A stretch of DNA of 64,000 nt from a virus (lineage: Duplodnaviria > Caudoviricetes): the IMG/VR virus record IMGVR_UViG_3300050156_000193, positions 8,450 to 72,449 of that record. One strand, 5' to 3'. The stretch's first letter is position 1. Each line of letters begins with the position of its first letter. Below are positions 14,785-49,624 of this stretch, one piece after another. The translations under genes were made by a program, and so were the position numbers. The notes beneath the pieces are model-generated. The model had not been told where the DNA came from. It searched no databases and saw only the letters and a list, made by a program, of their open reading frames with translations.

Positions 14785-16701
14785 TCAACCGTTGGTCTGT
14801 CCAGAGACGGTTTTCGGATCATACCCCTTATTCATGATGACGGTAGTCTTCAGCTTGGAAACACAGTCTCCAAGCATTTTATACACGTTCTTGATTTGGG
14901 CGATAATAGCAAAAACCGATTCTGAATCCATACCTTTAGACATTTGGTCTAACTTTACTCGAGTCAAGAAAAGGGTTCTACCCAGCTTGTCAACAGCCAT
15001 GTCCAACTCAGGGAGGTACTCTTCAATATGCTCCCAGAGATCTGGTACTTGTAGGAGCTGGGCAATAACGGTAGCTTCTAGGACTTGACTGTCATTCAAA
15101 CCAGCTGCATCTTGCAAGTTAGAGGCGAAGTTATTGCTTAGCGCACCATTAGGAGCAACCTTGTCAACTCTAGGAGCGACTGCACCATATTGAGGAATAG
15201 TGGCCGGGGCAAAGTCAGTACTGGCCGCTTCCGCAGACTTTGACAGGAAAACCTTGAGAAGCTTGAACTCTTCAGCCTGCTTCAAGAAGCTACCTGCATC
15301 GGTCGGATCCAAGTGCTCCTCTTCCACCAGAACCTTCAATGCCGAGGGGAATCCTCCAAGAGTCTTTCCGTTGGCAGAGAACTCGACGCCATCATGACGT
15401 AGATTGAGTTCAGCACCTAGGTATTGAGAGGCTACCAATTCCTTACCTAAAAGAGCATCATTAACGCTTCGCTCAACCTCGGAGTCAACAGATTGAGTCA
15501 AGGTAACAACGATGGCATTGTAGGGTACAAACAACGTGTCCCCAATAACATCCACTTCTTTGGTATAGTTTCTGTAACCTGAAATCTTACCGATACGCTC
15601 TGCACAAACTTGGATATCAACACCTGATTGAGTCAGAGTTACAGAATTTGCAGTGAACGGGCCTAGGGCTTCTCCGGCTGAGGTGAACAGGATGAATTCT
15701 TCCCCCCGAGCCAAGTCTCGCAGAAGCTTTGGAGGGTTAACTTCAAAGATATCAGTCAGGACCTTTTGAGTATCCAAAGGATCTCCGTTGGTCACCAGGT
15801 TTCCTCTTGCGTAAGTCCCGTCCATGAATAGACTGACAATGCTTCTATTCCCAACCGGATTTAGTCGGTGGTATTTCGGGAGATATGCAGGCTTGCTCTG
15901 ACCATTCTTGAATGCAATAGTGAAGTCCCTGCCCCCATCTGACATCGGGTTCACCTCTGTGAACTTGCCAGATTGATTGAAGGGTTGATAGGTGACTGCA
16001 ATTCTCGAGAAGGGATTGGCCCCGGTAATGACATATCCGTCTTGTGCAAAGGCTGCAGACATGACAGCATCACCTAAGCTCTGAACAGCACGAGGAGAGG
16101 TGATAACCGAAACGTCGTTAACTCGATTGATAACCGGCCCAGTTGCACCTGAGTTAATAGGCTTTCCCTGAGCTTGGGCGTTCAGGACCGAGAAGATAGC
16201 CTTGAGGCCAAACATCTTGTCAAGCTTGGAGTATAGGCTTTGTTCAGCAGCAATCTTCTCAAAGGTAAACTGCTTTACCGCTTCCGGCAGGATAGACAGG
16301 AACTCCGTCAGTCTACTGGTGGATGCATAGACAAACTTCCCAGTTCGAGGAGGATTAATCATTGCCGACACATCGGGGTTTGTCGGAACGGTATCTGGGA
16401 TCTTCTTCGACTTACCCGCAGTGGCAGAGACTGATGAGACGATCTGAGAGATCGTAGCATTCGTCAGAGGTCTAAACTGAGCCTCTGTTTCAAAAAAAGC
16501 AGAGTCAACAGGGAAGACCGTGTCCCCCTTGGCCACTACTGGGATGTACACAATTCCTAACCCAGCTCTTAGGATAAAGATACCCGCCTTTACCCCATCT
16601 TCTCCTAGGTCTTGAGTAATCTCTGAAAAGTTCAGAATCAGAGGTCCAAGTTCCGGAGCAGTCTGAAGAAACTTAGCTAGAGCAATGTCGGAAAATTCCA
16701 T
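14785..16701 (-). CDS. Large virion structural protein (unknown)
   Basis: 638 aa; K-x-A motifs; TATAAT-N6-ATG start; located in structural cluster. Confidence 0.65.
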   Translation of the reverse strand: MEFSDIALAKFLQTAPELGPLILNFSEITQDLGEDGVKAGIFILRAGLGIVYIPVVAKGDTVFPVDSAFFETEAQFRPLTNATISQIVSSVSATAGKSKKIPDTVPTNPDVSAMINPPRTGKFVYASTSRLTEFLSILPEAVKQFTFEKIAAEQSLYSKLDKMFGLKAIFSVLNAQAQGKPINSGATGPVINRVNDVSVITSPRAVQSLGDAVMSAAFAQDGYVITGANPFSRIAVTYQPFNQSGKFTEVNPMSDGGRDFTIAFKNGQSKPAYLPKYHRLNPVGNRSIVSLFMDGTYARGNLVTNGDPLDTQKVLTDIFEVNPPKLLRDLARGEEFILFTSAGEALGPFTANSVTLTQSGVDIQVCAERIGKISGYRNYTKEVDVIGDTLFVPYNAIVVTLTQSVDSEVERSVNDALLGKELVASQYLGAELNLRHDGVEFSANGKTLGGFPSALKVLVEEEHLDPTDAGSFLKQAEEFKLLKVFLSKSAEAASTDFAPATIPQYGAVAPRVDKVAPNGALSNNFASNLQDAAGLNDSQVLEATVIAQLLQVPDLWEHIEEYLPELDMAVDKLGRTLFLTRVKLDQMSKGMDSESVFAIIAQIKNVYKMLGDCVSKLKTTVIMNKGYDPKTVSGQTNG

Positions 16702-16770: not shown

Positions 16771-17574
16771 TTAACAGCAGCAGCCAGGGGCAGAGACTTT
16801 GCCCAGGCCAGGGTCAGGATTGCTTGGTCCGGAAGAAGACGCTACTTGAATAGTAGAGTCTCGGATTGCAGGAGAGCTTCCATTTGCAGTTTTGTAAATA
16901 GCACCCCCTACTATGCTTGAGGCATAGGCCTCAGGAGTCATGCCGTTTCTATCTGACTTACCCAACCCTAGATAGGCGGCAATAGCTGCTGTGATTTTCG
17001 AAGGAAAGGCTCGGTTATAAGAGTCTCCATTCACCCGGTACGCACCATTTTTGAAAGATACTGCTCGATACTTTCCTTCGAGGATAACCAAACCTGCCAA
17101 GATTGCCTTGTGCATGTTTGCCTCTCCTAAGACATGACCTAGAAGATCTTGACCTGGTGCAACACAGAGCTGAGGTGCAAGGTCTGGTCTCAGTCTTTCA
17201 ATCTCACAGCTCCCGGAGGGAGATCCTCCTTTGATGAAGTTCCAACCCATCACCTGCATTAACCCCACCCCATATAGCCCTTTATTGACGTTATCAATCG
17301 CAGTAGCGCTTCCAGAGGAGAAGATGCTTTTGATTGCAGAGCTATTCAGGAAATGAAACCCTCCAGTCCCAGGAGTTGAAGCTACCTTAGGACCTATGGC
17401 GTTGGCGTTATGAGTACTCTCTAATCGGATTTGTGCATTGATGATATTTACAATATCCTGCTCCTGACCCAGAGTGCCAGCAAAGTAAGTCTCTACGTGA
17501 GACTTAATGATATCCTTGACTTTAGGGATTCTAGAAGCGTCATACCCAATCTTAGGGGCAGTTCCGATAGTCAT
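16771..17574 (-). CDS. Lysozyme/transglycosylase-like peptidoglycan hydrolase
   Basis: IRLES (catalytic Glu), GVGLMQVMGWNF and AYLG motifs of the lysozyme-like superfamily. Confidence 0.65.
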   Translation of the reverse strand: MTIGTAPKIGYDASRIPKVKDIIKSHVETYFAGTLGQEQDIVNIINAQIRLESTHNANAIGPKVASTPGTGGFHFLNSSAIKSIFSSGSATAIDNVNKGLYGVGLMQVMGWNFIKGGSPSGSCEIERLRPDLAPQLCVAPGQDLLGHVLGEANMHKAILAGLVILEGKYRAVSFKNGAYRVNGDSYNRAFPSKITAAIAAYLGLGKSDRNGMTPEAYASSIVGGAIYKTANGSSPAIRDSTIQVASSSGPSNPDPGLGKVSAPGCCC

Positions 17575-19400
17575 CAGTACTTTCCTTCTTGACCTTCTCC
17601 AAACTCATTACCAAACATGTAGCTGGTAATAGGGTCTGTGCTATGAACATGGCTCTCTGAGTGAGTTGCAGCACTCTCTTTCAAGGAATCGCGCAGGCGC
17701 GAAAAGCTAAGTTTCGAAACCCAGTCTTTATCTAGCATCTTGGCAGTCTGCAGCCCGGGAACGATAGGCTTAACCTTAAGTCCTGTAGACGAGATCGGCA
17801 CCATTTTAACCCCCAAGTCCTTTAGATCTTGAATATGGTTCCCATCTAAGAGCGTACCTGGGACCAGAGCCCCCACCCCCTTGGACAAAATGCTGCCCTC
17901 TGCATGATTGACCCCAACTTCCTTGGAGCCTTTATCTAGGTATTTACGGATGGTATTGATCTCTACCTTATCCCCGGGAAGGAGCCCGGTTGCACCAGGG
18001 TGTTCGACTTCGACGTACTTGAGAAGATTCTTAGAGATGATTTCAAAATGCCTAGGGTCCAAACCTCCTCCATAGATATTACGGAGTTCGTTTGATATAT
18101 ACTCTCGCCCTGCACCAATGCCTCGAATACTCACTAGCTTTCTAGGATTTACTGTTCCAGTAGATAACTGATCCCCCATTCTAATAGTATCACCAGGTTT
18201 TACGGAGACCCTTTGCTCGATAGGGACAAAGTGAGACTTTTCATTGATAAAAACCACAGAGTCTCCTAGCGGAGTTTTCTTAACATCGGTAACTTTACCG
18301 TTGATAGATGCAATAGTAGCTTCATCTTTGAAGTTATCAGATGGGTTATTCAGCAAGTTTGCAGCCTGCTCGTAAGCATTCCCCTTGCGCTCCCCCACGG
18401 TAGCCTTGTGCTTTGTACTCAGCATGCTTTGAGTCAGGACTTCAGACACTGACTGTGCTGCAATAACTCCTACGTTGGTTCCGATTTCAGGTAGATGCCC
18501 GGAAGCCATTAGACCGAAGCAATGCTGACACACCCCTTCTTTTGCCTCGCAAGTCATTGCGCTTCTGACTTTTAGCTTCTTCTTCCCTGCATGAGAAGCA
18601 TCTCTGATAGCAGCTTCGTCTACCAAGTGATTAGTGTCGGCAGAGTATCGACCAAGAAGACTCTTAGTATCGGTTACGTCTACGAAAATACCATTATGAG
18701 TCCCGCAATCTTGAACGGTAATAACTTCATGGAATACCGTAGGGGAAAGCTTTTTGAACAAAGCTCCGGGCAAGGCAGTACTCAGTTGGCTCATCACAGT
18801 AGATCCTCGACCCATGTAGCTAAGAGCTATGTGTTCCGCAGGGCGCATGCCTTCCGCAAAACTCCGCTCAATCACTACTGGAATTAGCTCCCCCTTAACG
18901 TTCAAAGACATTAGGGGGGTAGAGGTTCCACTAGCCAACTGGGCAGGGTTTCCTCGGGCACCGGTCTTTGCCATCTTGGCAGCAGTAGAGTTCTTTGATA
19001 GGAGGTAATCTAGGTTCTGTTTTTCGATCTTCTTGTTATAGCCCCCGGTAAGCTCTGCCAGTTCTTGGTTCTTAACGGGCTTAGTTCTATCTGACATCAT
19101 GATACGTTGTACCTTGGTGTCGTATTCCCTGATAATGGCTTGGCGCTCATCACTATCATTGATATAGTCAGATAGGGGGGTAGACGCCCCAATCTCAGTT
19201 GCAGTATTGAAGAATAGACGCCCTAAGTCATTGATATGGTGAACCGCATTTGGGCCACCGTTTTTCAATAGGTTGTTGACCACCTTAGAGACGCCTGCTT
19301 TGTCCAAAGGGTTGTGGATATCAAAAGCTTTCTTAGAAGCTTCTGTAGGCATTGAATGCTTTAGAAGTAGGGCGCCTGCAGTAGTAATCTTATCGGACAT
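17574..19400 (-). CDS. rpoC: RNA polymerase beta' C-terminal piece
   Basis: TTAG start (cf. TTVGR), GARGNPAQL, DCGT, CEAKEGVCQHCFG Zn site, GVIAAQSVSEVLTQSMLSTKH trigger loop, RHFEII. Confidence 0.9.
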   Translation of the reverse strand: MSDKITTAGALLLKHSMPTEASKKAFDIHNPLDKAGVSKVVNNLLKNGGPNAVHHINDLGRLFFNTATEIGASTPLSDYINDSDERQAIIREYDTKVQRIMMSDRTKPVKNQELAELTGGYNKKIEKQNLDYLLSKNSTAAKMAKTGARGNPAQLASGTSTPLMSLNVKGELIPVVIERSFAEGMRPAEHIALSYMGRGSTVMSQLSTALPGALFKKLSPTVFHEVITVQDCGTHNGIFVDVTDTKSLLGRYSADTNHLVDEAAIRDASHAGKKKLKVRSAMTCEAKEGVCQHCFGLMASGHLPEIGTNVGVIAAQSVSEVLTQSMLSTKHKATVGERKGNAYEQAANLLNNPSDNFKDEATIASINGKVTDVKKTPLGDSVVFINEKSHFVPIEQRVSVKPGDTIRMGDQLSTGTVNPRKLVSIRGIGAGREYISNELRNIYGGGLDPRHFEIISKNLLKYVEVEHPGATGLLPGDKVEINTIRKYLDKGSKEVGVNHAEGSILSKGVGALVPGTLLDGNHIQDLKDLGVKMVPISSTGLKVKPIVPGLQTAKMLDKDWVSKLSFSRLRDSLKESAATHSESHVHSTDPITSYMFGNEFGEGQEGKY

Positions 19401-19483
19401 GGGTCTATTTTATCCGATTTAGAAGAATGCGTCTACTTGATAAAGCAGCTACCTAAGGTTGGTAACGGTTTGCTTTCAGCCCT

Positions 19484-19528
19484 AGTTGTAAATTCCCAAA
19501 TCTGCCGTTTCTTGGTATAAGAATAGTA
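19484..19528 (+). promoter_or_regulatory. Class I phage promoter
   Basis: AGTTGTAAA-TTCCCA-N17-TATAAG-AATAGTA. Confidence 0.75.
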
Positions 19529-19553
19529 CCGAAACCTAGTTCATAGACCGAAA

Positions 19554-21203
19554 GTGACCATGTCGACCCCTACTCCACTTAATATCCCCCCTTTGGTTAT
19601 TATAGCTCGGGAGCCAATCCTTCTTGAACCAATACCCCCCACCCTGGTTCGAATCAACCCTACTTCTGAACTTGCTTCCATCCCGGTACCTACCTCCCCT
19701 CCAGTCTCTATAGAGGCTCCCCCTGAAGTGCCCGCCTCCCTGGCAGAGATCCCAGAATTAGTCCCTAAGGTAAATGCACCTAGGCTCAAAACTAAAAAAG
19801 CCGTGCCTGCACCCGTAGAAATTACTACTGCAACTGAGGAAGTAGGAGAGGCTCTTACTTACCCAGTAAAAACCCCGTTCCAACGGGCTATCCGGAGACT
19901 TGGTAACTCCTCTTCATATAAGAAAGCCATTTCCCCTGTCTTTGCGGATATTCGTAGTAAAAAGGAGTACCTGACTATAACTCAGTTTGATCCTCTATCA
20001 ACGGAGTTTCAGGAATCCTTTAACACTGCCTGGGATGCTGATAAACGATCCCGCACTCAAGCTTTCGGGGACCCGAAACAGCTCGCAGGCTTTTATCGCC
20101 GAGGCGGGGGTACCCTCTCCTCTCCTAATGGAGTACCAAGGAATTTCCCTGCTTTGCCAAATCAGAAAGGCACTAGAGAGTACCCTCTGGATTTGTCCCT
20201 AATAACTGATCAAAACCCAATTTCTCATTTCCAGGAAGCCCTTTGGGTAGATGTTCCAAGTAAGTGTACTGAGGCTCAGGTTGTAGAATTGGCAATACTC
20301 AAAGTAACAGGGTCTCCTGGCCAAGGAAACGACGTAGATCTCTCAAGCCTACTGGTCAATATATACTCTGCAGGAGAAGGGATCTGTGCAATCACCTTCT
20401 TCAAAATTGCGCACGCAGAGGGGAGAACTTACGCAGCCATGAGACCCGTGTCCCTTCATACAGTATGGGTTCTACCGTACTACGAAGATTCGGGGTTGAC
20501 CACAGAACCCTTCTTTTTGAACGGAGGGATAGTCTTCGCGTACAAGACCTTAGCGTTTCGGGAGCTGGGTCTCAAGCTAAACCTAGACGGGACAGTTCAA
20601 GCAGTCGTCCCAGACCTTGTGAATACTGGTCAGTTAAAACTAACTGACGTGCGTAAAAATCCTCGAAGGATGACTCTACCGATGTTTCCAGATGTCGTAG
20701 CGAGCGCCTCCGGGGCCAGGGCTTCTTCTATAAACCGATGGTATGGAGAAATGGCTTTTAGTAGTGAGTACTTTCCTTTCTACGTAACAGGGGCAACTGT
20801 CTCTCCTGATCATATCTATTCCTCCGGTCAGGTGAGACGATATCCTCTTCAGCCTAGCAGGTTGGGGGTGTTTACCCCGCCCACCACGTCTATGAGGCTA
20901 CAGTACGCTCTTTGGCATAAATGCATTGTCCAAGGAGGGGGGAAACATACGGAGTATAGTGTGTATGTGAGCGGTTTTACGAAAAGACAAGCTTTTCTTA
21001 AAGCCATGACTCCCTGTCTTTTGGACTTCATGCCTGAACGGCAAGAGGTCTGGAAAGAGATCCAGAGCAGGAAAACTCTCAGTCAATTCAATGCTGAACG
21101 GATAAAGCTGAATCTACCCCTGATTACGAGAGTAGATCAATTGCAAACAGAAGCTCAGCGATTGAACTTCTTATCTATTGACCGGACATCTCTACCCGGT
21201 TAA
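19554..21203 (+). CDS. Hypothetical protein with Pro-rich N-terminus
   Basis: 549-aa ORF between a class I promoter and a terminator; no family recognised. Confidence 0.7.
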   Translation: MTMSTPTPLNIPPLVIIAREPILLEPIPPTLVRINPTSELASIPVPTSPPVSIEAPPEVPASLAEIPELVPKVNAPRLKTKKAVPAPVEITTATEEVGEALTYPVKTPFQRAIRRLGNSSSYKKAISPVFADIRSKKEYLTITQFDPLSTEFQESFNTAWDADKRSRTQAFGDPKQLAGFYRRGGGTLSSPNGVPRNFPALPNQKGTREYPLDLSLITDQNPISHFQEALWVDVPSKCTEAQVVELAILKVTGSPGQGNDVDLSSLLVNIYSAGEGICAITFFKIAHAEGRTYAAMRPVSLHTVWVLPYYEDSGLTTEPFFLNGGIVFAYKTLAFRELGLKLNLDGTVQAVVPDLVNTGQLKLTDVRKNPRRMTLPMFPDVVASASGARASSINRWYGEMAFSSEYFPFYVTGATVSPDHIYSSGQVRRYPLQPSRLGVFTPPTTSMRLQYALWHKCIVQGGGKHTEYSVYVSGFTKRQAFLKAMTPCLLDFMPERQEVWKEIQSRKTLSQFNAERIKLNLPLITRVDQLQTEAQRLNFLSIDRTSLPG

Positions 21204-21243
21204 AATCCAAGAAGAAACCAGGTTAAAATCCAAGAAGAAACCA
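21198..21243. repeat. 23-bp tandem duplication
   Basis: GGTTAAAATCCAAGAAGAAACCA x2. Confidence 0.9.
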
Positions 21244-21264
21244 GGTTCTAAACCTGGTTTTTTT
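21238..21264 (+). terminator. Intrinsic terminator
   Basis: AAACCAGG-ttctaaa-CCTGGTTT-TTTT. Confidence 0.75.
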
Positions 21265-21288
21265 AGATTAATCGACCCCCGACCTTCC

Positions 21289-22263
21289 ATGCCTAATCCG
21301 TATCTTCTCAAAATTGCTGAAGCCTTTTTCCATACGACGGGGGAGGACAGCCTTAGGCGCATCTTATCTAGTGGAAAAATTAAAACACTCTCACATGTGG
21401 CGAGAGAAAACCCCGAAGAGCCTATTTCAGTGGAGGTAGGGCTCCTCCCTTTTAGAAGAGAGGTACTACCTGCGGCAAAGGCTGTAGAGGTCATGTCCGC
21501 CAGGAAAATAACAGATAAAGTATTTTTAACGCGAGGAAAATACTTACCTACATATGGGGAATACGTTATAAAAAAAGAGCTAACCCTCCCTATTAAAAGG
21601 GTATCTTTAAACTCCATTCCAGAAGAATTTATATCAAGTAGGGTACTATCTACTAATACTAATAGCGAGATCTTTGTACCTGAATCCAAAGTTTCGACTT
21701 TTCAACAAGAATACCCCAGCTTGAAGGTATATTCGAATAAGAACATCCCTGCATTTTCTCTGCTTGATCGGGTCAAGAACTACCCGACCAAAGTAAAAGA
21801 TGTATTGTTTGCGAAAGCAGCCGAGCTTAACGTCAAGCGCATCTCAAACAACGCCCTTCTAGCAGGAAGTCAAGGCTTAGGTATTAATGTTGATGCCTCT
21901 GATCTGGATGTCTTTATCCCCTACAAGTCTAAATACCAATTTGAAAAAAATATAGAAAGATTACTTTCTCAGTATCCAGGTTTAAAGCCTGGAGAATTCT
22001 CGAAAAATAAAGAATCCAAAAGAGTGTTATCTGGCAGCATTGACGGGGTGGACGTAGATCTGGCGGTAGCATACGGGCAAAAAGCCCAAGCGTTTAAAAA
22101 TGCTTTTCTAAAAGCTAAAGACGCACTATCGGAACAGGAGAAGGCAGAGATCATTAAAAAGAAAACAGAGCTAAAAAATTCATGGGTATTCCCGGAAACT
22201 AGGTATAAAATGTACAAAAATCAAGTTGCAGAAAACTTAGGCCTTAAACAAACCTACTTCTAA
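21289..22263 (+). CDS. Two-domain protein: ADP-ribosyltransferase-like N-domain + Pol-beta-type nucleotidyltransferase
   Basis: Probable start MPNPYLLKIAE; FHTT...ILSSGKIK...VFLT (ART-like, weaker); LAGS...SDLDVF...DVDLAV (GS/DxD/D NTase triad). Confidence 0.6.
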   Translation: MPNPYLLKIAEAFFHTTGEDSLRRILSSGKIKTLSHVARENPEEPISVEVGLLPFRREVLPAAKAVEVMSARKITDKVFLTRGKYLPTYGEYVIKKELTLPIKRVSLNSIPEEFISSRVLSTNTNSEIFVPESKVSTFQQEYPSLKVYSNKNIPAFSLLDRVKNYPTKVKDVLFAKAAELNVKRISNNALLAGSQGLGINVDASDLDVFIPYKSKYQFEKNIERLLSQYPGLKPGEFSKNKESKRVLSGSIDGVDVDLAVAYGQKAQAFKNAFLKAKDALSEQEKAEIIKKKTELKNSWVFPETRYKMYKNQVAENLGLKQTYF

Positions 22264-23768
22264 TGAACCCCTATATTCTCAAAATTGCCAAGCAAATTCT
22301 CAAAGATACGGAAAAGGTCCCTGAAAAAAGGGGGGTCTCCGGCAAAGGGCCTCTTCGTCCGAACCAGGAAGAAGCCTTGTCTAAGCTAGATAAGAGCCAT
22401 GGGCTACTACTACACCACAGCACTGGTAGTGGGAAGACCGTAACCTTTCTAACTGCTGCCCAACGAGCTTTGGAAAAGGATAAGACTGGCCGGGCATTGC
22501 TAGTAGCCCCTGCAAGCTTAGTTTCTAACATTGATAAAGAGTTGGATAAGCATGGCATCAAATTGGATAGAAGTCGGTTAGATGTTATGTCTTACGAAAA
22601 GGCAGTGAATCGTTCAGAAGAACTAAAGAAAAATAAGTATGCAATTGCCATCCTTGATGAAGCTCAGAAAGTTCGAAATAGTGACACAAAACGCACTCAG
22701 ATACTGGGGGATATTGTTTCCAAGGCAGACAACCGAGTTTTGGCAACTGCTACCGCAAACTACAACCATGTTGCTGACCTAGCACCTATTATGAATATGG
22801 TGGCAGGTCATGAAGTTTTGCCAAAAGACAAGAGAGCGTTTGAAAAGAGGTTCACTCAGACTTCTAAGAAACCTCAAGGTATCCTTGATAGGATTCTTCG
22901 CAAACCCCAAGAAGAGGAAACTTCTTTAAAGGGGCAGAAAGAGCTGGGCAAGCTTTTTAAAGAGCACGTCCATTACTATGATGCTAGTGAAGATAAGAGC
23001 GTTCAGGACAAATTTCCCAAGACTACTGAAAAGACCATTGAAGTAGATATGTCCCCGGAACAGAAGCGGATGTACTCTTATATGGAAGGTCAACTCCCCT
23101 CTCTTCTGAAAATGAAAGTCCGCCACGGAATGCCTCTGGACAAACAAGAAAAGGCTCAGTTGAACTCTTTCTCTGCCGGTGTTAGACAGGTGTCAAATTC
23201 TCATCGTCACCTCTCCCAAACTCCAGACAAGGTCGCATATACTCCAAAAATTGAAGCTGCGGTGAAAAGCCTTAAAGAGCGTGCAGGAAGCGATAAGAAC
23301 TTCAGGGGATTGGTGTATTCTAACTACCTAGACGCCGGGGTGTATGAGTATGCGAAGAAGTTAAAAGAAGAAGGTATTTCTCATCATATCTACACCGGGG
23401 GGCTTTCTAAGTCGGAGAAAGACGCCATGGTTAAAGACTACAATGAGGGTAAGGTAAAAGCCTTGCTAATCTCTTCTTCAGGTGCAGAAGGGTTGGATCT
23501 AAAAGGAACTAAGCTAACTCAAGTCCTAGACCCCCACTTTAACCCAAGTAAGATCAAGCAGGTAATCGGCCGTGGATCTAGATATGAAAGCCATGCTCAC
23601 TTGCCTGAAAATGAGAGGACTCATGAAGTAGAGCACTACCTTTCTACTTTGCCTAAAAACCTGATGGGTAAGGCTCCGATGAGCATCGATAAATACCTGC
23701 ATGAGAACTCTGGGGAAAAGCAGGTGATGTTTGATCAGTTAAAAGAAGTGATGAAAAAGAGTAACTAG
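22263..23768 (+). CDS. SNF2-family (poxvirus D6/D11-like) helicase
   Basis: HSTGSGKT, ILDEAQ, ATAT, SGAEGLDL, DPHFNPSKIKQVIGRGSRYESHAHLP; N-terminal NPYILKIA. Confidence 0.85.
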   Translation: MNPYILKIAKQILKDTEKVPEKRGVSGKGPLRPNQEEALSKLDKSHGLLLHHSTGSGKTVTFLTAAQRALEKDKTGRALLVAPASLVSNIDKELDKHGIKLDRSRLDVMSYEKAVNRSEELKKNKYAIAILDEAQKVRNSDTKRTQILGDIVSKADNRVLATATANYNHVADLAPIMNMVAGHEVLPKDKRAFEKRFTQTSKKPQGILDRILRKPQEEETSLKGQKELGKLFKEHVHYYDASEDKSVQDKFPKTTEKTIEVDMSPEQKRMYSYMEGQLPSLLKMKVRHGMPLDKQEKAQLNSFSAGVRQVSNSHRHLSQTPDKVAYTPKIEAAVKSLKERAGSDKNFRGLVYSNYLDAGVYEYAKKLKEEGISHHIYTGGLSKSEKDAMVKDYNEGKVKALLISSSGAEGLDLKGTKLTQVLDPHFNPSKIKQVIGRGSRYESHAHLPENERTHEVEHYLSTLPKNLMGKAPMSIDKYLHENSGEKQVMFDQLKEVMKKSN

Positions 23769-23867
23769 TGCAATTTCTTAATTTAATCCTGAAAGATACG
23801 ACGATTACGATAACAGTCTTTTGTGTCCTCATAGCAACAATTCTAGTGTTCTTCCAAGACTGAATCT

Positions 23868-23896
23868 AAAGCGTCACCCCCTAGGCGCTTTTTTTT
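23868..23896 (+). terminator. Intrinsic terminator
   Basis: AAAGCGTC...GGCGCTTT followed by T-run. Confidence 0.65.
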
Positions 23897-23910
23897 AGTT
23901 AGATATGAGT

Positions 23911-23949
23911 TAGTTGTAAATTCAACATTTTGCAAGAACGTGGTATAAG
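23911..23949 (+). promoter_or_regulatory. Class I phage promoter
   Basis: TAGTTGTAAA-TTCAAC-N17-TATAAG; 38/39 identical to 49850-49888. Confidence 0.8.
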
Positions 23950-24008
23950 GGGGTTGTAAATAGAATCCTTTCTATTTAGCCGAGTTTCCCCCAACTGAAA
24001 GGCTCTTA

Positions 24009-25280
24009 ATGACCACGTTTTTCGCTCAGTCCGGTTCCACTTTTTCAATTCAGAACGACCTGAACTCTGTTATTCACGACAAACTTCCTGCTGGAAATTA
24101 CGCCGTAAAACAAAATCCTATGACAGGTGCTTTTTATTTAGAAAGCACTGAGAACTTTGAAGCCCCCGGCAAGATTTATGGGGACCCAATTCGTTACGCC
24201 AATCGCATTCTGAACACATTTCAGGATAAAAATAAGAGCTTAGGCACTCTCCTGGCAGGAGAGAAGGGTTCTGGGAAAAGCATGCTGTGCAGGGAAATCT
24301 GTCGACTTGGGTATGCATTGGAGTACCCAACCTTGATTATCACCAGCCCAATGCGAGGGGATGGATTCTTTCAATTTCTGCATGCCATCTCTCAGCCCAC
24401 CATCGTTTTCTTCGATGAGTTTGAGAAGGTCTACGACCGAGACGAGCAGCAGGGTTTGCTGACCTTGCTGGATGGAGTGTTCCCTTCCAAGAAGCTTTGG
24501 CTCTTGACCTGCAACGATAAGTGGCGGCTGGATTCTCACATGCGGAATCGACCTGGCCGAATTCACTATATGATCGAATTCCAAGGCTTAGATATGGCAT
24601 TCATCAAAGAGTACTGCGAAGATCGCCTGGACGACAAAACCCAGATCGACGGGGTCCTTTCCGCCTTGAGCATTTTCCATACAGTAAACTTCGATACCTT
24701 ACAGGCACTAGTATCGGAAATGAATTTGTACAAAGAATCTGCTTTGGATTCTCTTGAGCTGCTTAACGCACGCCCGGATAGTGACGATAAGAACGCTTAT
24801 TCAGTCAGCTTGGTGCATCAGGCTACCGGCATTACTTGGGGGGATGCCCCTGGTCAGGGCGAGGGGAAGTCCTTTTCTATGGACGGTAGTAGGATTGACA
24901 AATCGCCTTTGCATTTGCAAAATCACTTCGTCCAGTTCTATAATGTAGATCTGGACGATTTGGCGAAAGCAGGGAAAACCTTCGAACAAGTTAAAGAGTT
25001 GGCTGCAAGTTGTGGGCTATTGACTGAACAGCTTTTGGAAAGTGAGGGGCTTTTCTATAAGCTGCAATCTGGTGTGAAGCTGACTGACGAAGAGGAAGAT
25101 CTGAAGTACCTTAAAGCATTCCGAAATAAGAGTATCAGCCTTAGCAGTAAAGACCTCCTTGGCGCTGACCTTGAAGCTGGGGTGTTTGAATTCAAAGCCG
25201 ATCCAGGGTTTGTTATCAAGGTAAAGCGCAACGTCTCCCCAGGCCTTTCTATTCGGGAAGCAATGGGTCTGCTGGTCTAA
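24009..25280 (+). CDS. AAA+ ATPase
   Basis: Walker A GEKGSGKS, Walker B IVFFDEFEK, sensor TCN, RPGR. Confidence 0.9.
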   Translation: MTTFFAQSGSTFSIQNDLNSVIHDKLPAGNYAVKQNPMTGAFYLESTENFEAPGKIYGDPIRYANRILNTFQDKNKSLGTLLAGEKGSGKSMLCREICRLGYALEYPTLIITSPMRGDGFFQFLHAISQPTIVFFDEFEKVYDRDEQQGLLTLLDGVFPSKKLWLLTCNDKWRLDSHMRNRPGRIHYMIEFQGLDMAFIKEYCEDRLDDKTQIDGVLSALSIFHTVNFDTLQALVSEMNLYKESALDSLELLNARPDSDDKNAYSVSLVHQATGITWGDAPGQGEGKSFSMDGSRIDKSPLHLQNHFVQFYNVDLDDLAKAGKTFEQVKELAASCGLLTEQLLESEGLFYKLQSGVKLTDEEEDLKYLKAFRNKSISLSSKDLLGADLEAGVFEFKADPGFVIKVKRNVSPGLSIREAMGLLV

Positions 25281-25283
25281 AAA

Positions 25284-25508
25284 ATGACCCTCTCCCGTGT
25301 TCGAAAAACCGGGGCAGGGTATTTCTGGGCCGAGGAGGAGAAGGCTCTACTGACTTCTATTTATAGAACTGGTGGAAGCTTTTCTCTTTCTCGTGCGGTA
25401 GAAGCCCTGGCTCCTAAAAGCAGAAGTACCATTGCAGCTCAAGCCAGTCGCTTGAAGTTGACCGTTCCCAGGCCCAGGAAGACCCTTTCAACCGACGACA
25501 AGGATTAG
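25284..25508 (+). CDS. Small Myb/SANT-like HTH protein
   Basis: WAEEEKALL...RSTIAAQASRLKL pattern. Confidence 0.5.
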   Translation: MTLSRVRKTGAGYFWAEEEKALLTSIYRTGGSFSLSRAVEALAPKSRSTIAAQASRLKLTVPRPRKTLSTDDKD

Positions 25509-25510
25509 AA

Positions 25511-25774
25511 ATGCTAGCAAATAAAGAAGTCTCAGCTTCGATCTCAGAAGCACTTGATGCCTTAGAGGATAGTCTAGGTAGCAACTCGGAGTTTGACGTT
25601 GTGGTGATATTTTTGCCCAAAACCATTCGACAAAACGACTCTGACCTCAGAGAGATCTTAGAAGAAGACCCCCCGCTTCTGGTCTACACCGACAGTGCTC
25701 GACTAGAGGAAGCGGAAATGGCTATCAAATCAGAAGCCTATTATCTACACCAAGAACACGTCCTAGTGGGTTAA
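25511..25774 (+). CDS. Hypothetical acidic protein
   Basis: Closely spaced ORF ending just before terminator. Confidence 0.55.
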   Translation: MLANKEVSASISEALDALEDSLGSNSEFDVVVIFLPKTIRQNDSDLREILEEDPPLLVYTDSARLEEAEMAIKSEAYYLHQEHVLVG

Positions 25775-25775
25775 C

Positions 25776-25805
25776 AAAAAAACCTAGTCCCCACTAGGTT
25801 TTTTT
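25776..25805. terminator. Bidirectional intrinsic terminator
   Basis: A7-CCTAGT-cccc-ACTAGG-T7. Confidence 0.85.
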
Positions 25806-25808
25806 AGC

Positions 25809-26951
25809 TTATCCAATAGTAATAGGAGTGTTCACTTTAATCGCCCCGGACTTTAGCGCAGCCAAAGCTTCTTCTTCGGTCTTGAAATGAACCTGTTTTT
25901 GCTCATGATCAGGCTCTGTTAAATGCATAGACCCTAGAATAGCTTCATGTCCAGGGGCTACCAGACTGTTCCCTAAGCCCTTTCGGAAGTCATAGATATG
26001 AGACTCTGGTAAGAGCTTCTTCCTAGCTTCGACAATAGCCTCATCCGAAATAGGAACATGAACCGTTAACGCATCCCCGTCGTAGTCTCCTGCAAATAGA
26101 CTCAAGTGAAGAGGGCTTATCCCTAGAGTCTTCCCCGGAATAGGCTTTGGGTAAGCTGCTGTTACGTTAGACAACATCAAAGTAGGGGCACGGTTTAACA
26201 AAATAGGGATTTGCTTGATCAACTTATTATAGCTAGCCTGTGCAGCAGTAGTCCTGGCAGTAACAGCCTTCTTTGCTTCCGGGTAGGTGTATCCGTTTTT
26301 GACCAAGTCTCTAATAATGTGGTACTCGTACATGGTCCATATCATTTCGCTAGGTACTGCAGCTTCGTTAAAACCTAGATTAGGCTCAGCATAGATTGTA
26401 GCTCGACCTGAAAAGTCCTGCTTCTTGGATAGGATCTTGCTTTGAAAGAAGCCGGTCTTAGGCCCCCCTTCTCCTCCAATCTGTTTCAAGAAACCCTTCA
26501 GTCCTTCCCCGCGAGATGAACCCTTGATGGCCTCTCCTACCCCAAAGATAGCCTTGGCCCCGTTATAGAGATCTCTACGCTCTCCTGCAAGCATGTCATC
26601 CCCGAAGAATTCCTTAGCTTCACCGAGCTTGGAATTCACAAGCATATGATCCTGGTAAAGCTTATTAGCGTCCGGATATTTGATTCTATTCCCGGCCTGT
26701 TGAATAGGGGGCCTACAAATCGGGGGAATTACCGGCATATGGTTAATAATGAAAGACTCTTCCGGCTTAGTCCCAGAGCTATCTAACGCAGCCAAGTACT
26801 TGATCTGCTTCACCATATCGTCACGTTTAGCTGCGCTCTTAACTTCGTGAATATCCTTCTTCAGCGCCCCCAGCTGTTCCTTAATGTTTACAGCGGAGAG
26901 CATATCGTGAAATGCTTGACCTCCAGTAATGATAGAATCTTCGTTTTCCAT
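25809..26951 (-). CDS. rpoC: RNA polymerase beta' middle piece (catalytic)
   Basis: MPVIPPICRP, DANKLY, KKQDFSGRATI, LLNRAPTL, catalytic AGDYDGD, PGHEAILG. Confidence 0.92.
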   Translation of the reverse strand: MENEDSIITGGQAFHDMLSAVNIKEQLGALKKDIHEVKSAAKRDDMVKQIKYLAALDSSGTKPEESFIINHMPVIPPICRPPIQQAGNRIKYPDANKLYQDHMLVNSKLGEAKEFFGDDMLAGERRDLYNGAKAIFGVGEAIKGSSRGEGLKGFLKQIGGEGGPKTGFFQSKILSKKQDFSGRATIYAEPNLGFNEAAVPSEMIWTMYEYHIIRDLVKNGYTYPEAKKAVTARTTAAQASYNKLIKQIPILLNRAPTLMLSNVTAAYPKPIPGKTLGISPLHLSLFAGDYDGDALTVHVPISDEAIVEARKKLLPESHIYDFRKGLGNSLVAPGHEAILGSMHLTEPDHEQKQVHFKTEEEALAALKSGAIKVNTPITIG

Positions 26952-26988
26952 GGTTCAATTTTAGATAGAAGGGGCCAGAGCCCCTGGG

Positions 26989-29900
26989 TCAATCTTCTTT
27001 TTCAGCTTCAACTTCGTCTTCGATCACAGGCCTTGCTTTAAGAGAGTTCACTTGGATGGAGCGTAGCTTTTTCCCAGATTCGATATCATGCAAATGAAAG
27101 GTGTCCCCTTGCTTCTTAACCCCGATCTTTCCGTAAGCAATCCCTTCGAATTCCTTAGTAGATAAACCGAGAATAGACTTGATAGGTCTTTCCATCAAAG
27201 GATTGGCAATAGGCTCACTCAGAGAGTAATGCCCCCATTTGTTACCTCTCATGCCTCCTAGGATGGCAGGGTCAAACAGGCCTCCCTTTTCCGGCTCCAA
27301 GTTCTTTGCGGAAATCATAGAGGGCTCCTTAACCTCGCCATTAGACATAGACAGAATATCCTTATCCGTCAAGGGGGACGCCGTCAAGGTTCCATTACTG
27401 AGCGTAGTTTTAATCCCTGCAGCGGTCAAGTAATTGATGAACTTTTGAGTTGCAAAAGTAACCTTAGGCTTTGGCAAAGGTTGACCTGTCAAGAACTTAT
27501 CCCAGTACTCAGGGCTATTTTCACTCTTAGTGGTGGCAATTTCTTTCAAGTTCTTTCGGGCATTCGATCCCATCAGGCCTAGCATTTCCATATAACCAAC
27601 GCTCTTAGACCCCTCTTCTCCACCCTTACTAGGTTGACCGTTAGCATCGTAGCTTCCTGTATTTCTAGCAGACCAGTTCTGGTCCGAGGTCTTGTAGAGT
27701 TTCAGGAAATACTGAGGACCGTTCAGGACTTTGCCTAACACTTTTTGAGTGGTAGGGTCTACCAGTTCTTCTGAGTCTTGAAGACCGTGGGCTTCCAGTT
27801 CCTTTTTTAGCCCGACAACGTTAGAAGCCTTGCTGAAGTTGTGGATTAAGTAAGGAGTTCCAGTTTTCTTAGCAATCTTTGCAGCAGCAGTTTCCATAAG
27901 CTGACCAAGATTCACTCGAGAAGTTACTGATGCAGGATTCAGTAGGATATCAACCGGCTTACCCTCACCTTTAAGGTAAGGCATTTCATGGTCTTCCAGG
28001 ATCAGGGATACGATCCCCTTATTGCCGTGAAGGCCGGTCAGCTTGTCCCCAACCTCTAGGTGCTTCACAGACCTGATGATAAAACGAACCTGACGGCTTG
28101 CTGTATGAGCGTCCACCACCTCTCCGTTTTCTTCATGGTTCCAGGGCTCCATAACAAGCCTATAAGGGGTCACCAAGGTCTTATGGAGTCTGCCTAGCAT
28201 CTTATCCTCAGGAGTCGGCTCCTTGTGTTCTAAGACGGCATATACAGGGTCCCCATGCTTAAGGATTGCACCCTGCTTAGCAAAGCCTCGATCATCTAAG
28301 TTATCAAGCTGCTCGCGGGTGATCTTACCTGGGAAATATCTAGCAATCAGAGACTTCTTAGGCACAGACATTTCGTTGATTTCGTAGTCAACCTTATAAG
28401 CATGGTGACTGGACAAACTCTGAGCTGCGCTTCTGCTAATAACCAATCCGTCCTCGTGGTTATAACCCTTCCACGGAATGTAAGCTGCATGAAGGTTTCT
28501 ACCTAAAGCCAAGGTACCGTCTTTAGTGTAGTTACTATCAAACAGGACTGTTCCAGGCTTAACTCGATCTCCAACTTTCACCAAAGGCTTTTCGTCATCG
28601 TGAAAGCCCTTCATATTGAAAGGTAGATTCTTGACAGCTTGGATTGTTTCCTTTTTACCATCCGGGGTTTGAATAACGACCTTCAATCCGTCCACGGCAG
28701 TAATAACCCCCTCCACCGGAGAAGTCGTCCCTACTACGGCTGCAAGCTGTTTGGCAAAAGAAACCCCATGTTCATTCACTGTTTGAACCAGAGGAGCTTC
28801 TCTGTTTACCAAGCTCAATGCTTGGGGGATAGCTTTGCCAGCCATGGTCAAGCGCCCTGGGTGGTTACTATTCAGGAATGGGACCAGATTAGTGGTCACC
28901 GTATACATGTCAGTAGTATCTGCTAACCAATAGTCGATGTCTTTTGCAGGACACTTCCCAAGTTCTCCATGTATTTGAGCCTGAACCTCCTTCATTCCAT
29001 CTTGGTGGGGGAATCCGATGTTCTTTGTCATCATCTCATGGACGCTGAGGAAATGGTACTTACCAGAGTTATCCTTTACTCGTGAGTAAAGGTTCCCCTC
29101 CTCGTCTCTACGTGCAGTCACCGTGAATCGCTGGTCGATACCCGCATGACCGCTTTCCGGAGTACGGCTAGGGTCAATAATGCCTAAGTGGGACGGGTCA
29201 ATGTCTCGGGCAGACATCGGTACTCCTCTGTCAGAGGCAATACCCCCCTCTCCTGCACCCAGTACCGTTACCTTAGCGACGTTTTCAACTGACTCGATAG
29301 GGTTGGTTTCTGACGGAGTAGAGACTAGATTACTATCCATCAAGTAATTAGAGAAGAACTTGTTGAAGGGCTTAGGAACCATACTCCCTTTTAGCTTAGG
29401 CTTCAAAGGGTCCATTCGGTCCAATTCACGGACTACTCTACCCTTCACTAGCTTAACGACCTGATGTTCCTTGGCAAACCGAGTCTTTAAAAAGTCTGGG
29501 AGGTTCTGTACTCTCTTGAACTGTAGAGAGTCCCGATTGTCTTCTTGACGTTTACCAGAGTGAGTATCGACGAGGTTCTTCAAGGAAAGGAGGATGGCGT
29601 CGTGATTGACTCCAACCAGAGCCTTACCTAAGGTTGACTGAGTTGTTTGCGGGTGCAGAGAAGACTCCTCTAGGGACTTCTTTAGTTGCATCGCCATCCC
29701 TTCCGGGGAAGCATTTGCTTCTTGCTTAGAAGTGGAAACCATTCTGTGATAAATATCACTCAAGTACTTGTTTTCTTTACCTTTGACAAAAGCCAGATTA
29801 TCATTCCACACTTCAGGAGGGACGTAGTTACTAACTTCTTTCGGCCCAATACCAAAGACCTTTGTTAATAGCGGGGCTGCAGGAATTTTTGAGCTACCAA

Positions 29901-30393
29901 CTTCTAGGTAAAAGATCCCGGTTTGCGGCTCCAAGGTTAGAGAAAAGCTGCGGCCAGTACCCGTGTTAAAGTGGCTCTCCAGCTCCCCAGTGTCCCGAAA
30001 GCGGGTGTATACGCCTGGGCGAAGTTGAAGCTGATTTGCAACCGAGTAGTTGTTCCCCTTGTAGACAAGGGTATGCTTCCCAGTTAAATGAAAAGAGTCC
30101 ATCAACGTAAAGTCTTGATGGGTATCCAGGACCTTACCGGTGAGCTTATCCACTAACTTTAGGTCTGCTTTGATAGGGTAGGTGAGGCTGCGACTCTCCA
30201 GGATCGCCTTCTTCTCATCCCCATGTCCAATAGGGTTTCTCTCAGCCCGCACATTATCGATCTCTAGGCGAAACTGTTTCCCCTCAATCGGGAATTGATT
30301 CTTCAGCCCATGAATCAGAGCGGAGTCGACTCTTTCACTGACTTCATCAGGAGATGAAAAGATCCGCGTTAGGCTTTCAGCTGAGGTAGGCAT
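26989..30393 (-). CDS. rpoB: RNA polymerase beta subunit fused to beta' N-terminal segment
   Basis: QLQLRPGVY, PSRTPESGHAG, GYNHEDG, GDKLTGLHGNKG, DILLNPASVTSRVNLGQ, YFLKL; last 132 aa carry LTASP...NGEVK...GLFDP...WGHYSL (beta' region A). Confidence 0.92.
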   Translation of the reverse strand: MPTSAESLTRIFSSPDEVSERVDSALIHGLKNQFPIEGKQFRLEIDNVRAERNPIGHGDEKKAILESRSLTYPIKADLKLVDKLTGKVLDTHQDFTLMDSFHLTGKHTLVYKGNNYSVANQLQLRPGVYTRFRDTGELESHFNTGTGRSFSLTLEPQTGIFYLEVGSSKIPAAPLLTKVFGIGPKEVSNYVPPEVWNDNLAFVKGKENKYLSDIYHRMVSTSKQEANASPEGMAMQLKKSLEESSLHPQTTQSTLGKALVGVNHDAILLSLKNLVDTHSGKRQEDNRDSLQFKRVQNLPDFLKTRFAKEHQVVKLVKGRVVRELDRMDPLKPKLKGSMVPKPFNKFFSNYLMDSNLVSTPSETNPIESVENVAKVTVLGAGEGGIASDRGVPMSARDIDPSHLGIIDPSRTPESGHAGIDQRFTVTARRDEEGNLYSRVKDNSGKYHFLSVHEMMTKNIGFPHQDGMKEVQAQIHGELGKCPAKDIDYWLADTTDMYTVTTNLVPFLNSNHPGRLTMAGKAIPQALSLVNREAPLVQTVNEHGVSFAKQLAAVVGTTSPVEGVITAVDGLKVVIQTPDGKKETIQAVKNLPFNMKGFHDDEKPLVKVGDRVKPGTVLFDSNYTKDGTLALGRNLHAAYIPWKGYNHEDGLVISRSAAQSLSSHHAYKVDYEINEMSVPKKSLIARYFPGKITREQLDNLDDRGFAKQGAILKHGDPVYAVLEHKEPTPEDKMLGRLHKTLVTPYRLVMEPWNHEENGEVVDAHTASRQVRFIIRSVKHLEVGDKLTGLHGNKGIVSLILEDHEMPYLKGEGKPVDILLNPASVTSRVNLGQLMETAAAKIAKKTGTPYLIHNFSKASNVVGLKKELEAHGLQDSEELVDPTTQKVLGKVLNGPQYFLKLYKTSDQNWSARNTGSYDANGQPSKGGEEGSKSVGYMEMLGLMGSNARKNLKEIATTKSENSPEYWDKFLTGQPLPKPKVTFATQKFINYLTAAGIKTTLSNGTLTASPLTDKDILSMSNGEVKEPSMISAKNLEPEKGGLFDPAILGGMRGNKWGHYSLSEPIANPLMERPIKSILGLSTKEFEGIAYGKIGVKKQGDTFHLHDIESGKKLRSIQVNSLKARPVIEDEVEAEKED

Positions 30394-30710
30394 TACTCCG
30401 TCTCCTCCATATACTGAATCAAGATCATGAGTTTCTCCATGAAGATAAACTCCTTTTTACTAAGCACGAATGTCCCTTGGTTACGAATAGCCCGAGTCTC
30501 AATCAGCTCCAGCTCTGTAATATCGGAGGGATTGTCCATATCCAATTTCTGATATCGAATACGGTAGTTATCCATTGACTTCTCAGTCTTACGCTTTCCC
30601 GCCAGGATATCTGGAAGAGCGGCAGGGTCGTTAAAAACAGTGCCCTTTTCAGGCTTAGCATCCAAGTTAGCAAGCGAAGAGAGTGACGGTGAGTTTAAAG
30701 AAGTAGCCAT
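30393..30710 (-). CDS. Small hypothetical protein translationally coupled to beta
   Basis: TAA overlaps the beta ATG. Confidence 0.6.
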   Translation of the reverse strand: MATSLNSPSLSSLANLDAKPEKGTVFNDPAALPDILAGKRKTEKSMDNYRIRYQKLDMDNPSDITELELIETRAIRNQGTFVLSKKEFIFMEKLMILIQYMEETE

Positions 30711-49279: not shown

Positions 49280-49355
49280 GCGGTCATAACTCAATTGGTA
49301 GAGTACCTGCCTTCCAAGCAGGATGTTGTCGGTTCGAGCCCGACTGGCCGCTCCA
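49280..49355 (+). tRNA. trnG: tRNA-Gly (UCC)
   Basis: GCGGTCA/TGGCCGC acceptor stem, anticodon TCC, GGTTCGA T-arm, encoded CCA. Confidence 0.95.
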
Positions 49356-49356
49356 T

Positions 49357-49441
49357 CCACAAGTGGCGAAATTGGTAGACGCACCAGGTTTAGGTCCTGA
49401 TGTCGAAAGACGTGAGAGTTCGAGTCTCTCCTTGTGGACCA
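49357..49441 (+). tRNA. trnL: tRNA-Leu (UAG)
   Basis: CCACAAG/CTTGTGG stem, anticodon TAG, long variable arm, CCA. Confidence 0.93.
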
Positions 49442-49448
49442 GTATTTC

Positions 49449-49538
49449 GGAAGAGTAGCCAAGTGGTTTACGGCAGCAGTCTTGAAAACTGCCGGGGTGG
49501 AAACACCTCCGTGGGTTCGAATCCCACCTCTTCCTCCA
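49449..49538 (+). tRNA. trnS: tRNA-Ser (UGA)
   Basis: GGAAGAG/CTCTTCC stem, anticodon TGA, long variable arm, CCA. Confidence 0.93.
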
Positions 49539-49548
49539 CCTCCTCCTA

Positions 49549-49624
<76 letters not shown>

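Follow-up and report, generated by a model that had tools for sequence, protein, structure and literature searches.

A predicted three-gene RNA polymerase core with a displaced β/β′ boundary in an uncultured relative of Salmonella phage Arash

Phage multisubunit RNA polymerases are known as a kind, and the nearest cultured relatives of the enzyme described here are the orthologous polymerases of Salmonella phage Arash (gp206 and gp216; OQ632216; PMC10585845) and Vibrio phages D69, D148 and D181, which are 50–54% identical to it and 51–53% identical over the whole of its first protein. The Arash paper labels gp206 'beta subunit', and its fusion to part of β′ went unrecognised (PMC10585845). The present enzyme is coded in a stretch of 64,000 nucleotides (the window), which covers bases 8450–72449 of the 72.4-kilobase (kb) IMG/VR viral record IMGVR_UViG_3300050156_000193, for which CheckV gives a completeness of 39%; near-identical contigs of the record occur in several leaf-litter metagenome runs, and the source phage is, as judged from its sequence, an uncultured relative of Arash. 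Three minus-strand genes, encoding P0001 (26989–30393, 1134 residues), P0002 (25809–26951, 380 residues) and P0003 (17574–19400, 608 residues), are predicted to make up one bacterial-type RNA polymerase core with two double-psi barrels, in which β carries a segment of β′ at its C-terminus and the rest of β′ is divided into two pieces. This three-gene arrangement and the shifted subunit boundary appear to be new.

The window and Arash have in common the loss of the β′ zinc ribbon, an alanine at the position of E. coli β′ Asn458, a β′ that is divided past the catalytic barrel, the same portal-to-polymerase gene order, a σ gene, and the fact that no α or ω gene is found. However, β and the N-terminal half of β′ are a single protein of 1525 residues in Arash and D69, while the window has 1134 + 380 residues, and the residue at the position of Arg425 is Arg in Arash and Leu in the window. 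The RNA polymerases of phiKZ/AR9 jumbo phages (PMC7598289) resemble the window in lacking α and ω and in splitting β′ after the catalytic barrel, and it has been reported that one polymerase set of this type is packaged in the virion and injected (PMC7598289). Their β is split in two or three, whereas that of the window is intact and extended, with one open reading frame (ORF) and a continuous alignment of ~1000 residues; likewise, they have no σ homologue and two polymerase sets, whereas the window clade has one or two σ factors and one set of β/β′ matches per genome. Sequence similarity to the phiKZ/AR9 type is low, at 24–26% (loci L012 and L013).

Three further systems are comparable in part. 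The mReC group (Weinheimer and Aylward 2020, PMC7481178) also consists of metagenomic tailed phages with divergent bacterial-like β/β′ genes, in genomes of ~100–300 kb. Its members were selected by a β′ match of at least 800 residues (COG0086) with NADxDGD (PMC7481178), so that the β′ pieces of the window, with 133, 380 and 608 residues and AGDYDGD, are excluded from that set by design. The mReC table gives a separate β (~1000–1560 residues) and an unsplit β′ (~900–1300 residues), and the paper is silent on fusion, splitting, σ, α and zinc for mReC (PMC7481178); the link to mReC is loose. A natural β::β′ fusion occurs in Helicobacteraceae and Wolbachia (Zakharova et al. 1999; Lane and Darst 2010, as cited in PMC7483510), where, as in the window, the C-terminus of β is covalently joined to the N-terminus of β′, which shows that a tether is compatible with function; these bacteria fuse the whole of β′ (PMC7483510) and keep the zinc ribbon, α and ω, whereas the window β carries only 133 β′ residues (~17–170). 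In cyanobacteria and plastids, β′ is divided after the catalytic barrel into γ (RpoC1) and RpoC2, as it is in the window, but the phage break lies upstream, the phage C-terminal half starting ~18 residues before the start of RpoC2, and the N-terminus of β′ stays on γ in cyanobacteria while it stays on β in the window.

The assignment of the end of P0001 to β′ comes from Pfam, from alignments and from the fused orthologues. P0001 matches Rpb2_6 (PF00562, E-value 2.5e-54) and Rpb2_3 (PF04565), and residues 1008–1045 give a weak, sub-threshold match to profile positions 12–49 of Rpb1_1. In a phmmer search against the PDB, residues ~30–1028 of Arash gp206 align to bacterial β up to its last residues (E-value 7e-72, ~1000 residues), with residue 1011 of the Arash orthologue corresponding to residue 1266/1269 of 8dkc_C. 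The end of β is placed at ~residue 1001 of P0001, so that β proper (residues 1 to ~1001–1002; 27388–30393, minus strand; Rpb2_6, Rpb2_3 and the alignment of the Arash orthologue) is followed by a β′ tail of residues 1002–1134, that is, an N-terminal β′ segment (region A) of ~133 residues plus a TGA stop at 26989–27387 (minus strand; Rpb1_1 match and profile alignment). About 17 N-terminal β′ residues are absent at the joint. A profile made from 12 naturally fused sequences places its positions 18–63 on β′ residues 18–63, the block GEVKKPETINYRTFKPE(R/K)DGLF, and resumes at position 143, the counterpart of β′ residue 174 in chains from Francisella and E. coli (E-value 1e-62). The ~79 intervening profile positions stand in for β′ residues 64–173, and the zinc ribbon is absent from them.

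A wider comparison was based on 55 related loci gathered from IMG/VR, in which the polymerase pieces were located by tblastn. The β′ tail segment is without any cysteine in 55/55 of these loci, and all bacterial β′ matches recovered retain CxC...CxxC; the position of the zinc ribbon is taken up by a short cysteine-free loop, with a three-stranded β-meander at the end of the segment. For a fused orthologue, the AlphaFold model has a mean predicted local distance difference test (pLDDT) value of 69.5, with 85–90 over the domain after the ribbon and ~62 at the linker ahead of the middle piece (residues ~131–140), and the top Foldseek matches of this model are cyanobacterial γ and bacterial β′ chains (E-value 2e-25). 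In Arash and D69, the tail and the rest of the N-terminal half of β′ are contiguous in one ORF. The initial annotation of the window, which was made from the letters alone, had read the C-terminal extension of β (26989–27387) as β′ region A and had claimed that the zinc ribbon was lost; the Rpb1_1 match, the profile alignment and the fused orthologues agree on the former, and the latter holds across all 55 loci.

P0002 (minus strand) is assigned to the middle of β′, with the clamp helices and the catalytic double-psi barrel, by Pfam and PDB alignments. It matches Rpb1_1 at profile positions 158–253 and Rpb1_2 (PF00623, E-value 2.4e-16), and residues 1144–1497 of the Arash protein correspond to residues 177–521 of E. 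coli β′ by phmmer against the PDB. Its start is thus at the equivalent of E. coli β′ residue ~170–177, the 'MGAEAI' position at which the second gene had been proposed to begin, and its end is at ~residue 550 in bacterial numbering, which is residue 551–556 of the 617–626 residues of γ in cyanobacteria. P0003, with the bridge helix and trigger loop region, matches Rpb1_5 (PF04998, E-value 2.8e-16) and, by phmmer against the PDB, residues 614–1098 of bacterial β′ (E-value 5e-40). The protein starts with ITTAG, and its residue 32 corresponds to residue 14–15 of cyanobacterial RpoC2, so that the break is near, but upstream of, the split of the cyanobacterial and phiKZ type; the γ and RpoC2 alignments bear out the suggestion that β′ is divided near the cyanobacterial point and not at it. 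The second zinc site of β′ is intact in P0003 (C232, C284, C291 and C294), and the glutamine and histidine of the trigger loop are retained (TQ...H). P0003 lies 6.4 kb from P0002, with a plus-strand block (19554–25774, from the ORF list) separating the two β′ pieces, and both the coordinates and the Rpb1_5 match agree with the earlier placing of the start of the C-terminal half at TTAG beyond an opposite-strand block.

The active site of the window polymerase is altered. Residues 287–293 of P0002 read AGDYDGD, which keeps the three-aspartate DxDGD metal site. The initial annotation had stressed AGDYDGD in place of NADFDGD, which is true of the window, but the tyrosine is not distinctive, as F and Y alternate in DxDGD within the clade (AGDFDGD 18, AADYDGD 16, AGDYDGD 14); the constant change across the clade is that of Asn458 to Ala, Gly or Ser. 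In P0002, A287 (26091–26093, minus strand) stands at the position of E. coli β′ N458, and L260 (26172–26174, minus strand), in the context NRAPTLM-L-SN, stands at the position of R425. The residue at the R425 position is R in 32 members of the clade, K in 10, Q in 6, A in 2 and L in 1, the last being the window; Gln, Ala or Leu is confined to the immediate relatives of the window, most of the clade having Arg or Lys. The Leu codon is identical in contigs of 3 metagenome runs. It has been reported by Makinen et al. that Arg425 and Asn458 are universally conserved contacts of the 2′-OH of the nucleoside triphosphate, that Arg425 is the main determinant of sugar selection, and that the R425L substitution in E. 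coli abolishes the pause before incorporation of deoxyguanosine monophosphate and leaves processive transcription strongly defective (PMC7862312). The full set of NADFDGD plus Arg425 is not present in the window polymerase, which by its aligned residues lacks both cavity residues that contact the ribose 2′-OH (R425 to L and N458 to A).

The relatives of the window show how its three genes are likely to have come about. A megablast search of the 14-kb polymerase region against the phage collection gave 0 matches, so relatives are detectable at the protein level only, and the best PHROG matches are two function-unknown families of 1191 and 1216 residues, which rank above the phiKZ-type 'RNA polymerase beta subunit' families. 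Arash gp206 and D69 0261 are single ORFs of ~1525 residues that span P0001 and P0002 end to end and are 52–54% identical to the window pieces. Among the classified rows, β and the N-terminal half of β′ are one ORF in 21 (19 from IMG/VR plus Arash and D69) and are separate in 35 (34 from IMG/VR plus the window). Every split is at the same linker and is found in all members of the window clade (26/26) and in 9 further relatives, with junctions that range from overlapping GTGA or ATGA, through 4 nucleotides, 37 nucleotides (the window) and 170–430 nucleotides, to 1.3–3.5 kb, occupied by co-directional genes, and 8.2 kb; in 3 loci, β is not within 10 kb. In a wider protein database there are more than 100 clusters of fused proteins of 1440–1600 residues with PF00562, PF04997 and PF00623, comprising two groups, one Arash-like (43–60% identity, A[AG]D[YF]DGD) and one distant (33–39% identity, N[AL]DYDGD), together with a few complete β::β′ fusions of ~1990 residues (P0100, P0108 and P0109). 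One protein of ~1990 residues with all domains is labelled as belonging to a Halobacteriota metagenome-assembled genome and is probably viral. Another database protein, P0103 (1007 residues), is an unsplit β′ that has NADFDGD at position 352 and is similar to the mReC β′ class of ~1005 residues.

A tree of the middle piece (quick search, ~390 columns) was rooted with the distant fused group as the outgroup. Of 54 IMG/VR relatives included in the tree, 35 have their split at the shared linker. Fused forms are basal in this tree, and 3 changes to the split state are needed, of which at least 2 are forced by well-supported branches; the window falls in a clade of 26 rows, all split, with a Shimodaira–Hasegawa-like approximate likelihood ratio test (SH-aLRT) support of 98, whose sister is the fused protein P0006, 60% identical to P0002. 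With fused forms at the base and the split ones nested beside fused sisters, fusion is the ancestral state, and the three-gene state is derived and recurrent. Fission at the linker near E. coli β′ residue 170 appears to have occurred two to three times, a count that is not firm. Profile position 143 corresponds to residue 174 in E. coli-type chains and to residue 452 in Thermus β′, and the linker site coincides with the ~280-residue insertion of Thermus β′, which points to a surface site tolerant of interruption. Taken together, the comparisons support the view that the window clade re-split an ancestral β::β′N fusion ~133 residues inside β′. The distinct fusion and fission arrangement suggested at the outset is thereby upheld and given a history by the rooted tree and the fused relatives. 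The reservation attached to it, that the same split might be standard and already described in close relatives, is borne out in part: the split is standard in the uncultured subclade of the window, but it is described in no paper found, and literature searches returned no paper describing a β that carries β′ region A or the β::β′N fusion of Arash-like phages. The 'moraphage' paper proved to be unrelated.

The ORFs of P0001 and P0002 are 37 nucleotides apart and in different frames, and the spacer created by fission (26952–26988, minus strand) contains a GC hairpin, AGGGGC-TCTG-GCCCCT, of −13.6 kcal/mol, compared with −6.5 ± 2.5 kcal/mol in shuffled sequences, 3 of 300 of which were as low. TAAAAT sits 6 nucleotides ahead of the ATG of P0002, and the P0002 frame has a TGA stop 6 nucleotides before this ATG. 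The junction sequence is identical in a contig of run X5, a run not flagged as source. A search of Rfam found no introns in the window (four transfer RNAs only) and none in 7 relatives with kilobase gaps, so these gaps hold ordinary genes; Pfam searches of 10 gap ORFs gave one RRXRR (HNH-associated) protein, weak DnaJ and glycine-zipper matches, and nothing else. The split is genuine, and an assembly artefact is excluded by the identical junction in other runs, the TGA in the downstream frame and the lack of an intron. Programmed frameshifting or read-through at the junction was also considered and is ruled out by in-frame stops.

The signal ahead of P0002 recurs in the window. TAnAAT-N5–7-ATG occurs 15 times, of which 9 are at the starts of ORFs of at least 60 residues, namely at 26951, 19400, 56940, 16701, 13879, 11436 and 1012 on the minus strand and at 34218 and 38478 on the plus strand. 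These include both free β′ pieces (TAAAAT-N6-ATG), the σ gene (TACAAT-N6-ATG) and the gene for an orthologue of a virion protein of Arash, and a TAnAAT-type signal stands ahead of the β′ genes in many relatives. In Arash-like genomes, a TAAAATA element is found ~35 nucleotides upstream of the β′ gene, with a ribosome-binding site, while P0001 itself has GGAGG as its ribosome-binding site, its start overlapping with the stop of an upstream ORF of 105 residues. The TAnAAT pattern suggests a phage-specific promoter whose transcripts are leaderless or nearly so. A generic scan for σ70 promoters and terminators over 16.5–33 kb found sites no more often than in shuffled sequence and missed the spacer hairpin, and the 12-mer TCTATCTAAAAT has only two exact copies, an enrichment that is not significant.

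Polymerase genes of this group also contain mobile elements. In one relative (L058:7172–8084), a group I intron (RF00028, 107.7 bits) followed by an ORF of 205 residues interrupts the β part of the fused gene; Vibrio phages D181 and D148 have homing endonuclease genes inside the polymerase match; and the database relatives P0059 and P0105 have intein domains. Mobile elements are thus drawn to these polymerase genes, a hint at how a linker could be opened.

Neither α (PF01000 and PF01193) nor ω (PF01192) has a match at E-value ≤ 1 in the 72-kb record, in Arash, in D69 or in a complete 165-kb relative with terminal repeats, while the same Pfam models scored in 14/14 control genomes. The earlier remark that no α or ω gene is visible therefore extends to the record and three complete relatives, and the polymerase possibly assembles without α, a reading consistent with the evidence from these sequences. 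A σ70-family factor of 265 residues is coded at 56143–56940 on the minus strand (Sigma70_r2, E-value 7.7e-11; phrog_351, E-value 7e-31) and is likely the specificity subunit. A gene of this family is also present in the complete relatives, and none was found in the 65%-complete record G002.

It has been reported that gp206 leads all proteins of the Arash virion in mass spectrometry with 3516 spectra, that the β′ C-terminal half gp216 has 1210 and the σ factor gp10 has 467, and that the helicase gp217 and the protein gp218 have ~1150 each (PMC10585845). In the window, a portal protein gene (30753–32570, minus strand; phrog_2739 and phrog_16240) lies directly upstream of the polymerase cluster in the same portal-to-polymerase order as Arash gp204–gp206, and this adjacency places the polymerase genes in the virion module, with the portal gene on one side and orthologues of virion proteins on the other. 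By analogy with Arash, and from the gene context and shared start signals, the window polymerase is probably packaged in the virion.

The proposed explanation brings these observations together. The ancestral state comprised two genes, one for a β::β′N fusion of ~1500 residues, in which β runs into β′ at ~residue 17 and the zinc ribbon is deleted, and one for a separate C-terminal half of β′. In the lineage of the window, this fusion was cut at the surface linker near E. coli β′ residue 170, which left the first 133 β′ residues on β, and the remainder became a gene of its own behind the hairpin and the TAAAAT-N6-ATG start. The three chains are expected to reassemble into a normal core, the β-borne β′ segment folding with the middle piece and completing the clamp, and this interlocking, or the covalent tether in the fused relatives, may replace part of the assembly role of the α dimer and ω. 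Promoters would be recognised by the phage σ70-family factor bound to the clamp helices of the middle piece and to the β flap. By analogy with Arash, the polymerase would be made late with the structural proteins, packaged, injected and used for the transcription of early genes; this one core may also serve later stages with a second σ. That the three genes are a catalytic core derived from a re-split β::β′N fusion, with the assembly, σ use and packaging outlined here, is in our judgement quite probable as a whole.

Several points weigh against this explanation and are gathered here. Assembly, activity, σ dependence and α independence are properties that we infer for the enzyme. Because Leu at the R425 position is impairing in E. 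coli, full activity is not guaranteed. The record is 39% complete, so an α-like gene could lie outside it, and a very divergent α or ω would escape the Pfam models. As for packaging, 116 of 272 Arash proteins were called virion-associated and the authors allow for carry-over of abundant non-structural proteins (PMC10585845), and the search of the Arash proteome covered phage proteins only, so that the particle might also contain host α. The number of independent fissions, finally, rests on quick-search trees of ~390 columns.

Under one of the other explanations, the real product of the first two genes would be a fused protein of ~1515 residues, as in Arash, and the stop that separates them would stem from faulty assembly or sequencing, from a pseudogenising mutation of recent date or from a site of programmed frameshifting. 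It is true that the closest cultured relatives have one ORF here and that the window ORFs are only 37 nucleotides apart and in different frames, but the 26 clade members and 9 relatives split at the linker, with gaps of up to 8.2 kb holding other genes, the junction identical in contigs of other runs, the TGA in the downstream frame 6 nucleotides ahead of the ATG, the spacer hairpin with the same TAAAAT-N6-ATG signal as at the gene for the C-terminal half of β′, and the lack of an intron in the window or the gapped relatives make this scarcely credible. Another view takes the layout in three pieces for primitive and modular, with separate ancient subunits that cells joined later; it draws on the argument of Iyer et al. 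that the polymerase pieces of jumbo phages are early-branching and not split cellular subunits (PMC7824862), and on that of the mReC authors for a deep origin of phage polymerases (PMC7481178). For the window, however, it is very unlikely, as fused forms are basal with split forms nested beside fused sisters, no cellular β′ is interrupted in the segment that contains the break, and the nucleotide context of the break varies by subclade (overlap, 4 nucleotides, 37 nucleotides and kilobases).

The absence of α is the point at which a rival has more weight, namely that the phage core assembles on the host α dimer, perhaps with ω, as a hybrid enzyme, so that the missing α reflects borrowing. α is highly conserved among bacteria, the phage subunits are clearly of bacterial type with bacterial β/β′ as their top PDB matches, and the limitation of the Arash virion search to phage proteins would have hidden such a subunit. 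Against this, polymerases of the phiKZ/AR9 type are active without α or ω and provide a precedent (PMC7598289), a β–β′ tether would be expected to relax the need for an assembly platform, and identity to any bacterial β/β′ is ~25–32%, so that conserved α-contact surfaces are not assured; borrowing of host α is on balance unlikely, though it deserves serious attention. The boldest form of the re-split fusion explanation, that the clade has a minimal, virion-borne, σ-dependent polymerase of β, β′ and σ only, in which the tether or interlock makes α and ω unneeded and which in the window, with both cavity residues lost, may select sugars differently from, or less strictly than, any characterised multisubunit polymerase, is put forward tentatively, as something that could well be true but that we would not yet expect to be.

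The surroundings of the polymerase genes comprise several further ORFs. The ORF of 105 residues between portal and β (30393–30710, minus strand), whose stop overlaps the start of β, has tblastn matches directly upstream of β in 32 related loci; it has no Pfam or PHROG match, is poorly conserved (17–26% identity to its Arash and D69 counterparts), and may be a head protein or a small polymerase subunit. The idea of an ω-like subunit was considered for it and set aside in view of the poor conservation and the lack of a family match. On the other side of the cluster are an ORF of 267 residues (16771–17574, minus strand), whose start overlaps the stop of the C-terminal half of β′, and a protein of 638 residues (14785–16701, minus strand) that is the orthologue of Arash gp218. 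The plus-strand block at 19554–25774 contains an SNF2 helicase (22263–23768, plus strand), 42% identical to Arash gp217, an AAA ATPase (24009–25280, plus strand), an unknown ORF of 549 residues, a DUF4269/nucleotidyltransferase-like ORF and an ORF of 87 residues. An SNF2 ATPase that is coded beside the polymerase, and whose Arash orthologue is abundant in virions, recalls RNA polymerase-associated SNF2 proteins such as RapA of bacteria. An N-terminal motif, M(x)N(P/R)Y(I/L)xK(I/V)A, is common to this helicase (22263, plus strand), the DUF4269 ORF of 324 residues (21289, plus strand) and an ORF of 118 residues (8143, minus strand); similar N-termini (MNKYLEKIAE and MNKYLCKLAE) are found on ORFs inserted in the polymerase cluster of the relatives L007/L041 and L008/L042, and Arash gp217 is without the motif. 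A cluster of four transfer RNA genes lies at 49280–49621 on the plus strand.

Few features of gene organisation are as conserved as the subunit boundaries of the cellular RNA polymerase, and here such a boundary has shifted by 133 residues, first by fusion and then by fission, with fission recurring at one permissive surface loop. The clade unites features that are not known together, namely bacterial-type large subunits with σ, no α or ω gene, no β′ zinc ribbon, an altered NADFDGD motif and probable packaging in the virion. The length and motif filters of published phage polymerase surveys mean that a large group has been missed. As Arash grows on Salmonella Typhimurium, the need for α and the zinc ribbon, the action of σ on a minimal core and the part of R425/N458 in sugar selection are all directly testable in a small natural enzyme.

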